Assembly (NCBI RefSeq): GCF_044647545.1
Contig: NZ_CP172818.1
Length of the DNA: 64,000 nt
Origin: Escherichia coli
GTDB taxonomy: Bacteria > Pseudomonadota > Gammaproteobacteria > Enterobacterales > Enterobacteriaceae
Strand: one strand, 5' to 3'
This document shows positions 60,201 to 63,200 of this stretch, in pieces. Position numbers: made by a program. Each line of letters opens with the position of its first letter. The stretch's first letter is position 1.

Positions 60201-63200
60201 ATAATGAGGGAGAATCAGCAAAGCTGCAAAGATTTTCGCCATCAAATTGTCTGCAAATGCAACAAACTGTTGATAGAAACGGCAAACAGTTGGGAAAATT
60301 AAAAATCGGGTTTGACAAAAGATTTTTCGCCGTTAAGATGTGCCTCAACAGCGATTCCTCTGTAGTTCAGTCGGTAGAACGGCGGACTGTTAATCCGTAT
60401 GTCACTGGTTCGAGTCCAGTCAGAGGAGCCAAATTTCTGAAAAGCCCGCTTTTATAGCGGGCTTTTTGCTATATCTGATAATCAATTTCCTCTTCACTGT
60501 TTTCCATCACCTGCCGCTTGATATCCTCAACTGAAAGTCCTGCATTACAAAGTTCCAGAAAGCGCCAGACATAGTTACGCTGAAGTTGTCCTCGCTTCAG
60601 TCCCAACCAGACAGTATTAGCATCGAAAAGATGCCGCGTATCCAGGCGGATTAAATTCTTTTCCTCTTGTTCACCGCTGGATTGTTCGGCAACTAATCCG
60701 ATCCCAAGCCCAAGAGCAACATAGGTTTTAATGACATCAGAATCCTGCGCACTTAATATAATATCTGCCAGCAAACCTTTGCGGGCAAATGCGTCATCAA
60801 TACGTGAGCGCCCCGTAATCCCCTGTCGGTAAGTGATTAACGGCCACTTCGCTATTGATTCCAGCGTCAATGGTGTAATTTGCGTCAAGGGATGATCGTG
60901 TGGAACAAGCAAACTATGGTGCCAACGAAACCACGGGAAGGCGACGAGCTGCGGGTCATTACTCAAACGCTCGCTGGCGATACCAATATCAGCTTCACCA
61001 TTATGCAACAACGTCGCAATTTCCTGTGGCGTCCCCTGGATTAGCTCGAGCCGAACCTCCGGGAAAAGTTCGCGAAAAGCTTTAATGACCTCTGGCAAGC
61101 TATAACGTGCCTGAATATGCGTCGTTGCAATAGTGAGAACGCCAGACGTATCGTTGGTAAACAGGTCTGCAAGCCGACGAACATTACTGGCTTCATTGAG
61201 AATACGTTCTGCAATGACCAGTAATGCTTTGCCCGGTTCAGTCATGCCCAGCAGTCGCTTACCTCGTCGAACAAATATTTCGATGCCAAGTTCATCCTCC
61301 AGTTCCCGAATATGACGGCTGACGCCTGACGCCTGACTGTGAGGTAAAAAGCATATTCGCAACCTCTGTCAGGTTGTAATCCTGACGTGCAGCTTCGCGG
61401 ATTATCTTTAGTTGTTGGAAATTCACGGTAAACTCCGGGCAGTTCAGATATCCCGTTATTGTTAAAGTCTAACGCCCGGCATAACAAATAATAAAAACCC
61501 GCATCTTATTCCATCCCGATATAACGCTTAGCTCACCAATTGCCACTGCCTTTTTTCCATCACTGGAGAACTAATCACTGACATTAACAACTCTTTCACT
61601 GCCTGTGCCTGTGGCGATAAGTTCGCTCTGGCGGGTAAATTTAATGACAAAGAGAGACTCATGGAAGGCGTGGTAATGCGTGACATCCACCCATTTACTG
61701 CGCCACATAACGAACGCGCGGCCGATTCGGGTAATACTGCAACGCCCATGCCGCTGGCAATCGCTGCGGTAAGCGTAGCAATAGACTCAATTTCACCAAT
61801 GACTTTTGCCGTGAGCCGCCGTAGGGAAAACGCCTCATCAACACGAAGTCTAACAGCGCTGTAATCACTGGGGAGAAAAAGGTTCATTTGTGCAATAGCA
61901 TTAACATCAACGCTTTGCCCCGGGCAATCTTGAGTTCCTACCAGGAAAAGATCTTCTTTCAGCAAAGCCTGACTGGATACACCAGCCACAGGGGAATGCT
62001 CATAAATCACCGCCATATCGAGTTGTTGATTTATCAGTTTTTCGTTAAGCACTGCACCGCTATTTTCATGAAGATAGATAACGACCTCCGGGAATTCAGC
62101 GCGAACCGCCTGTAATAAGGGCATGGTGATGGATGACGCAGCGGTTCCTGGCGCAAAGCCAATCGAGACTTGCCCCGATAATGCCTGACCAACGTTATGC
62201 ACCGCCAGTTGGGCCTGCTCACACTGACGTAAAATGGCCCGCGCATGGGTATAGAGAATTTTTCCGGCGTCTGTTGGCGTAACGCCCCGTTTTGTGCGAA
62301 TCAAAAGTTGTTGATTTAACTCACCTTCGAGTGTGGCAACCTGCTGGCTGAGCGCTGGTTGTGCGATATGCAATACTTCAGCAGCCTGAGTCAGGCTACC
62401 AATATCTACAATTTTTACGAAGTATTTCAGGCGTCTGAAGTTCATGTTGCCTCCGGTTTTTGAGAATCGGCCCAAGTGCCGCCATTACTTACAACCAGAT
62501 TGCAAGATGCTTGCCAGTTTTATTTTGGCGTTGATGTACAAGCTAACCAACTGTCAAATAAGAGATTATGATAGATTCGTCATTGGCTCTTTTCACCAGC
62601 AGTCGCGTTCCCCTGCCCTATAAAAGGAGGGTATGCACCACGATGGTTCATTACCAATAAGATTGAAATCTCATCACTTTGTTGAAATTGACAGCAAACA
62701 AACAAAAAAATGCATTTCACCCTTTGACATCACCATGCACTGCCATTAATATGCGCCCCGTTCACACGATTCCTCTGTAGTTCAGTCGGTAGAACGGCGG
62801 ACTGTTAATCCGTATGTCACTGGTTCGAGTCCAGTCAGAGGAGCCAAATTCAAAAAAGCCTGCTTTCTAGCAGGCTTTTTGCTTTCTAATTACCAACGCT
62901 CTTAAAACATCTGTCTTGAACCAGAACTAATTTGCACAGGCATTCCCGATCGACGTTGCAACGCAGCATTTGCGCGATTCACATCAACTTCTTGCCCGTT
63001 GATAAACGCCCGCAAAGATGGGGTTACCGGCAATGGCACTTTTCGGTCAGACTCATATTCAGCACGATTGCGCGACAGCGGCTCATGAACTTCCAGCCAC
63101 TTTGAACCATCCGGTTCCGTTGTGTATTTCACTGGCTGATCAATAATTTGCACACGAGTACCTACAGGAACATTATCAAACAGATATTTGATATCGTCAT

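Follow-up and report, generated by a model that had tools for sequence, protein, structure and literature searches.

The gene cbl, which encodes a LysR-type regulator, is broken by the tandem duplication of a single 7-nt unit in the stretch of Escherichia coli DNA analyzed here (64,000 nt of contig NZ_CP172818.1, assembly GCF_044647545.1, referred to below as the window). This +7 allele is an ordinary frameshift pseudogene and a lineage marker, and it already carries an automated RefSeq flag. The preferred reading is that a recent slipped-strand duplication inactivated Cbl in a sub-lineage of the ST648 clonal complex, with a predicted defect in sulfonate use and a nearly neutral outcome for the bacterium. 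A probability of about 85% is given to this explanation taken as a whole.

The plus strand reads CTGACGC CTGACGC CTGAC at 61319-61337, exactly as had been described in an earlier note on this DNA, and the minus strand, which is the coding one, reads GTCAGGC GTCAGGC GTCAG from 61337 to 61319. A period-7 array is delimited at 61313-61337 by Tandem Repeats Finder (TRF), and a direct count designates the 19-nt period-7 stretch in cbl as the sole one present in the 64-kb window, for a chance expectation of about 0.004. The corresponding tract of K-12, ATCC 11775 and O157:H7 is GTCAGGC GTCAG. The extra unit can be placed either at 61324-61330 or at 61331-61337, two alternatives that are indistinguishable. 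The earlier note had named, as an observation that would speak against its reading, a wild-type N-terminus from which no frameshift is implied. The alignment with the wild-type allele of ATCC 11775 came out the other way, displaying exactly one 7-nt gap and otherwise zero differences over 161 nt.

The consequences for the reading frame can be summarized as follows. The GTG frame starting at 61426 encodes MNFQQLKIIREAARQDYNLTEVANMLFTSQSGV, the N-terminus of a LysR-type regulator, followed by RRQPSYSGTGG and a stop. Reading goes out of frame from codon 36 on, within the LysR helix-turn-helix (HTH), and a premature TGA (61294-61292) stands as codon 45, with 8 codons separating it from the repeat; both the HTH-encoding frame and its early stop had been correctly recognized from the sequence. 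The 958 nt of the gene are not a multiple of 3, and subtraction of one 7-nt unit leaves 951 nt and 316 uninterrupted codons, in agreement with the repair proposed earlier. Compared with its functional orthologues, cbl is thus a frameshift pseudogene: an insertion of 7 nt puts it out of phase and leads to the stop at codon 45. The statement that 297 codons remain downstream of the repeat was accurate in part only. An open reading frame (ORF) of this length does exist, starting mechanically at a TTG (61362..60469), but just 281 of its codons (Ser36 to Ile316) correspond to Cbl sequence located past the repeat. It overlaps the N-terminal ORF and is annotated in just 2 public records. The 258-aa product starting at Met59 displays the LysR substrate-binding domain (Pfam PF03466) only and is devoid of HTH. 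The coordinates of these features are collected in Table 1.

Table 1. Features of the cbl locus, in window coordinates
Feature	Position	Strand	Remarks
tRNA-Asn	60356..60431	+	directly downstream of cbl, convergent
cbl pseudogene	60469..61426	-	GTG start 61426, TAG stop 60469-60471; 958 nt vs 951 nt in wild type
258-codon ORF from ATG of Met59	60469..61245	-	product reported by gene callers for the +7 allele
Mechanical TTG-started 297-codon ORF	60469..61362	-	codons 1-16 read through the HTH region out of frame
Haplotype SNP, plus-strand A, Thr102Ile in Cbl	61115	-	non-synonymous
Residual N-terminal ORF, 44 codons	61292..61426	-	residues 1-35 of Cbl, then 9 residues out of frame
Heptanucleotide tract	61319..61337	-	2.7 units vs 1.7 in wild type
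nac, upstream neighbor and paralog, intact	61528..62445	-	305 codons

The identification of the broken gene as cbl, already advanced in the earlier note, can be made on the basis of synteny, of the sequence restored by removing one unit and of its domains. The locus is ordered yeeO, tRNA-Asn, cbl, nac, tRNA-Asn, ldtA, which is also the order around the gene annotated as cbl in E. coli genomes. The repaired 316-aa protein is identical to the reference Cbl (WP_001011000.1, ATCC 11775) at 315/316 positions, the sole nucleotide difference between the two genes being located at 61115 and resulting in Thr102Ile. The exact repaired protein carries the name Cbl in both NCBI and UniRef. It is matched by PDB 2FYI, the crystal structure of the Cbl cofactor-binding domain, with E = 6e-143, and it comprises the Pfam domains HTH_1 (PF00126, residues 3-63) and LysR_substrate (PF03466, residues 90-293). 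The break after residue 35 cuts HTH_1 at about its midpoint, and the two domains are located in different frames in the actual +7 allele.

In order to evaluate how widespread the allele is, a 200-nt query spanning the repeat was compared to the complete E. coli genomes, in 5,417/5,426 of which the locus is present. The +7 allele matches at 100% in 28 of these 5,417 genomes, and the other full-length matches listed stand at 96.5%, a shortfall that corresponds exactly to the 7-nt gap. The genome from which the window originates is absent from this collection, and its copy rests on the agreement with its relatives. The window and the close relative ECONIH1 are identical over 60000-63500 and share 99.9% identity over 13.5 kb around cbl, and the RefSeq record of ECONIH1 lists cbl as a pseudogene with the PGAP note 'frameshifted'. 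An exact-sequence look-up retrieved the 258-aa product (starting at Met59 and bearing the substitutions of the window's haplotype) on 371 contigs and the in-frame 316-aa Cbl of this haplotype on 133 contigs. Further public assemblies were sampled through the 258-aa product, and all of them (4/4) contain the +7 tract. Isolates with this allele include ECONIH1, MS6198 and DSM 101139. No exact match was obtained in this look-up for the 44-aa, 56-aa and 334-aa products, a result that has little bearing on the frequency of the -7 allele described below since short or odd ORFs go uncalled. As 28 independently assembled complete genomes carry the allele and PGAP flags it as frameshifted, the duplication is real and heritable and does not originate from sequencing or assembly. 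The early impression that it is no typical sequencing error is borne out by these genomes and by the further assemblies.

The lineage carrying the duplication was defined by means of the fli region of the window and of the serC-mukB segment. A total of 35 genomes tie as best matches to the fli region, and all 28 genomes with the +7 allele are among them. This set includes Ecol_881, the ST648 reference chromosome in the literature (PMC9174282). The clonal complex delimited by the segment from serC to mukB is wider and comprises, for instance, CLSC36 (O1:H42) and strain 1428. Since cbl is in frame in these two members of the wider complex, the +7 allele is taken, on genomic comparison, to mark a sub-lineage of the ST648 clonal complex, being neither strain-specific nor universal in ST648. 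The question whether the duplication is confined to one strain is answered in the negative by the 28 complete genomes, which belong to one ST648 sub-lineage. A literature search devoted to ST648 in connection with cbl or sulfur phenotypes returned no relevant paper from the library consulted.

A number of other differences were observed within the window and in the related genomes. Clusters of 1-nt indels and short stretches of scrambled sequence break fliC (4097-5784, minus strand) into three ORFs, of 241, 134 and 79 aa; a flagellin of about 548 aa is intact in ECONIH1 and all other ST648-like complete genomes. This break looks like locally poor assembly sequence or a real decay of fliC. One base fewer than in ECONIH1 is found at 13388, beside a DUF5503 gene whose ECONIH1 annotation already records a frameshift and an internal stop. 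ECONIH1 carries a yersiniabactin high-pathogenicity island (HPI) of about 31 kb at tRNA-Asn (asnT), and the window (45812-52636) is devoid of it. The window retains about 3.7 kb of yeeJ (46798-50492) that are missing from ECONIH1, and its yeeJ is split into ORFs of 1511 and 525 aa. A patch located inside the yeeJ remnant (52611-52628), including a C8 run, differs from ECONIH1 (TGCTATTTACCAAACAGTT) and has the character of the patches in fliC.

Over yeeO-cbl-nac-ldtA (59000-63600), 0-2 mismatches in 4.6 kb are observed across very different phylogroups, the near-identical genomes including the B2 strain ATCC 11775, ETEC O6:H16 and ST38; the same segment differs by about 2% from its counterparts in K-12 and in some ST648-like genomes. 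This distribution points to a mosaic region affected by recombination. The 4.6-kb yeeO-ldtA segment was dropped as a means of defining the lineage, being nearly identical in unrelated phylogroups.

The haplotypes at the locus were compared in order to follow the allele among its closest relatives. The SNP at 61115 is common to the +7 allele, to a -7 allele and to eight wild-type, in-frame genomes; ATCC 11775, strain 142 and K-12 lack it. The seven genomes of the 35-genome set without the +7 allele were inspected individually. One of them, CUVET20-PYO4 (NZ_CP115376.1), contains a cbl of 944 nt (locus L009, 1624-2567) that is flagged as frameshifted in RefSeq. Its tract, ACA GTCAG CCG, is one unit below wild type at the same site as the duplication, and this -7 allele is found in 1/5,417 complete genomes. 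The 3.5-kb haplotype of CUVET20-PYO4 is that of the window except for the tract, the Thr102Ile SNP included, and its cbl lies at the same HPI-containing spacing from the fli region as in the +7 genomes. Given the shared haplotype, the shared spacing and the greater instability of a longer tract, the -7 allele is most simply read as the result of a second slip, in which a +7 allele that had lost its frame beforehand lost 14 nt; alternatively, 7 nt may have been deleted directly in a wild-type ancestor. The gene is in frame in 3150, JBEHAAB-19-0176, NRZ105822, ampC_0069 and PC-NDM34, whose first pentamer is GTCCG. These ST648-like in-frame haplotypes are about 2% divergent from that of the window. 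The import of a K-12-like segment into 3150 and the other in-frame genomes, which had been considered, was dropped because a comparison placed their haplotype at about 1.6-1.8% from K-12 and from the window alike. Strain 142 has an in-frame cbl on a haplotype resembling that of ATCC 11775; cobU is flagged as frameshifted in this strain (NZ_CP048337.1, locus L011, 11224-11770). As their haplotypes differ from that of the window, the six in-frame genomes of the set are read as recombinants or basal lineages and not as revertants. No in-frame allele occurs on the exact haplotype of the window within the 35 genomes, the eight such genomes being located outside this set, and no +14 allele is found in the complete-genome collection.

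The paralog nac is identical at the DNA level to nac of ECONIH1 (WP_001011476.1), which agrees with the intact state reported for it. As the convergent tRNA-Asn lies downstream of cbl and no protein-coding gene is located there, no polar effect is expected from the lesion. A scan for promoters and terminators around cbl and nac performed no better than on shuffled sequences.

The duplication may be accounted for by template slippage involving the pair of GTCAG pentamers, 7 nt apart, in the wild-type GTCAG-GC-GTCAG. Their misalignment during replication would add or remove 7 nt, and both outcomes, +7 and -7, are present at this one site. One unit would accordingly have been duplicated within codons 32-36 in the ancestor of the ST648 sub-lineage. 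The frame is thereby lost within the recognition helix of the LysR-type HTH and translation ends at codon 45, the possible products being a 44-residue peptide with half of the HTH or a re-initiated effector domain without it (e.g. 258 aa from Met59).

Cbl is described in statements of PMC4501297 and PMC11495319 as a LysR-type accessory activator on which, alongside CysB, the sulfate-starvation operons tauABCD and ssuEADCB depend. According to the same statements, citing van der Ploeg 1997 and 1999, these operons ensure the uptake and the oxygen-dependent desulfonation of taurine and alkanesulfonates. The sub-lineage would thus be left without a functional accessory activator of both operons. 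What these two sources state on K-12 cbl mutants is the basis for predicting that tau/ssu are not induced and that sulfonates do not support growth. The aerobic use of sulfonates and taurine is accordingly predicted to be lost in the sub-lineage, a well-founded expectation, and the CysB-dependent assimilation of sulfate and cysteine should be unaffected. In ECONIH1, the annotation shows every gene of tauABCD and ssuEADCB as intact, with no pseudogene flag, and this preservation argues for an evolutionarily recent lesion. In host-associated niches, the lesion is most simply assumed to be neutral or nearly so. Beside ssu, the fimbrial chaperone gene ycbF is flagged as frameshifted in ECONIH1 (locus L020, 45080-45818).

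The assumption of neutrality can be opposed by positive selection, according to which losing Cbl confers an advantage in the niche of ST648 and led to a sweep of the allele through the sub-lineage and to a second frameshift at the same site. The occurrence of two frameshift alleles in one clone and of none in thousands of other genomes would fit such a scenario, as would the abundance of the +7 allele on its 371 contigs. The -7 allele, however, when taken as a later slip in a dead gene, provides no independent evidence. The frequency is accounted for by hitch-hiking in the expansion of a multidrug-resistant clone, and no other type of cbl lesion was seen in this clone. Selection for the loss of Cbl is for these reasons considered unlikely.

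The repeat could alternatively act as a reversible switch of the sulfonate-sulfur regulon, slippage in ST648 converting cbl between OFF (0.7 or 2.7 units) and ON (1.7 units), with tau and ssu maintained through ON revertants selected whenever sulfonates are the sole sulfur supply. Three tract lengths do exist, the 0.7- and 2.7-unit alleles being found on one identical 3.5-kb haplotype in one clone. The target operons are intact, and short tandem duplications are generally known to lose one unit more readily than point frameshifts revert, the CTGG hotspot of lacI being an example. If the three alleles interconverted at appreciable rates, the preservation of tau and ssu would be explained. The tract nevertheless reaches merely 2.7 units, far fewer than is usual in known contingency loci. 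Of the 29 genomes of the ST648-like set that bear this haplotype, none (0/29) is in frame, the six in-frame genomes carry different haplotypes and the collection is devoid of a +14 allele. Furthermore, neither a +7 nor a -7 event is observed in about 5,380 other genomes, although the sequence of the site is shared by genomes of several other phylogroups. A switching function is therefore unlikely, and markedly so.

A residual activity of the +7 allele was also considered. The AGG codon is the rarest arginine codon of E. coli. The duplication places it in frame at the slip site (GUC AGG C), where a +1 ribosomal frameshift would produce a full-length Cbl with a Gly-Val insertion, the +1 frame being open across the entire overlap; in another version, the re-initiated effector domain would retain part of a regulatory role by itself. 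There is, however, no slippery P-site codon, as GUC cannot re-pair in the +1 frame, and no evident stimulatory element. The shifted product would bear its two-residue insertion in the recognition helix, and the Met59 product is devoid of HTH. Leaky function is accordingly held to be very improbable. Finally, the possibility that the true sequence contains a single GTCAGGC unit and an intact cbl, suggested by the low-quality-looking patches in fliC and yeeJ of the window relative to its close relatives, is effectively refuted by the identical +7 tract in 28 complete genomes, sequenced independently by different laboratories on different platforms, and in at least 4 further assemblies, by the absence of any difference from ECONIH1 over 60000-63500 and by the nature of the event, a 7-nt non-homopolymer duplication being atypical as a platform error.

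Slipped-strand inactivation of cbl in one sub-lineage remains the preferred reading, and it has some practical implications. As a simple and specific marker, the 7-nt insertion identifies a multidrug-resistant ST648 sub-lineage that has spread globally, and it can be scored by a short PCR product or a k-mer. The predicted inability to use taurine or alkanesulfonates aerobically as sulfur source could bear on metabolic models, selective media and niche adaptation. Apart from this, the +7 allele represents routine gene decay by slipped-strand duplication, which would not surprise a specialist.

The window allele can be compared to several known systems. The wild-type E. coli Cbl (a CysB-like LysR-type activator; K-12 b1987; WP_001011000.1) shares the locus, the synteny and, after repair, the HTH_1 and LysR_substrate architecture, and the window allele differs from it by the +7 frameshift after codon 35, the stop at codon 45 and Thr102Ile. 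The CTGG tandem repeat of lacI is a hotspot at which, as reportedly described by Farabaugh et al. in 1978, units are gained and lost by slipped-strand mispairing. The cbl tract is likewise a short tandem direct repeat in a regulator gene, with gain (+7) and loss (-7) at one site. In contrast to lacI, its unit is 7 nt long and present in 1.7 copies in wild type, and variation is rare in nature, with 2 allele types in 5,417 genomes. Contingency loci are built on long tandem tracts, usually of at least 5-6 units. As in those of the phase-variable genes of Haemophilus, Neisseria and Campylobacter, the number of repeats in cbl sets the frame and related isolates differ in their units, but the tract is very short, at 2.7 units against 1.7 in wild type, and the genomes of the clone show no ON variant on this haplotype. 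A further comparison concerns the lineage-marker pseudogenes of pandemic E. coli clones, designated 'frameshifted' by PGAP. None of the annotations seen mentions the repeat mechanism or the -7 sister allele, and the lesion itself is already flagged as frameshifted in the RefSeq records of ECONIH1 and CUVET20-PYO4; the +7 allele of cbl is exactly of this kind.
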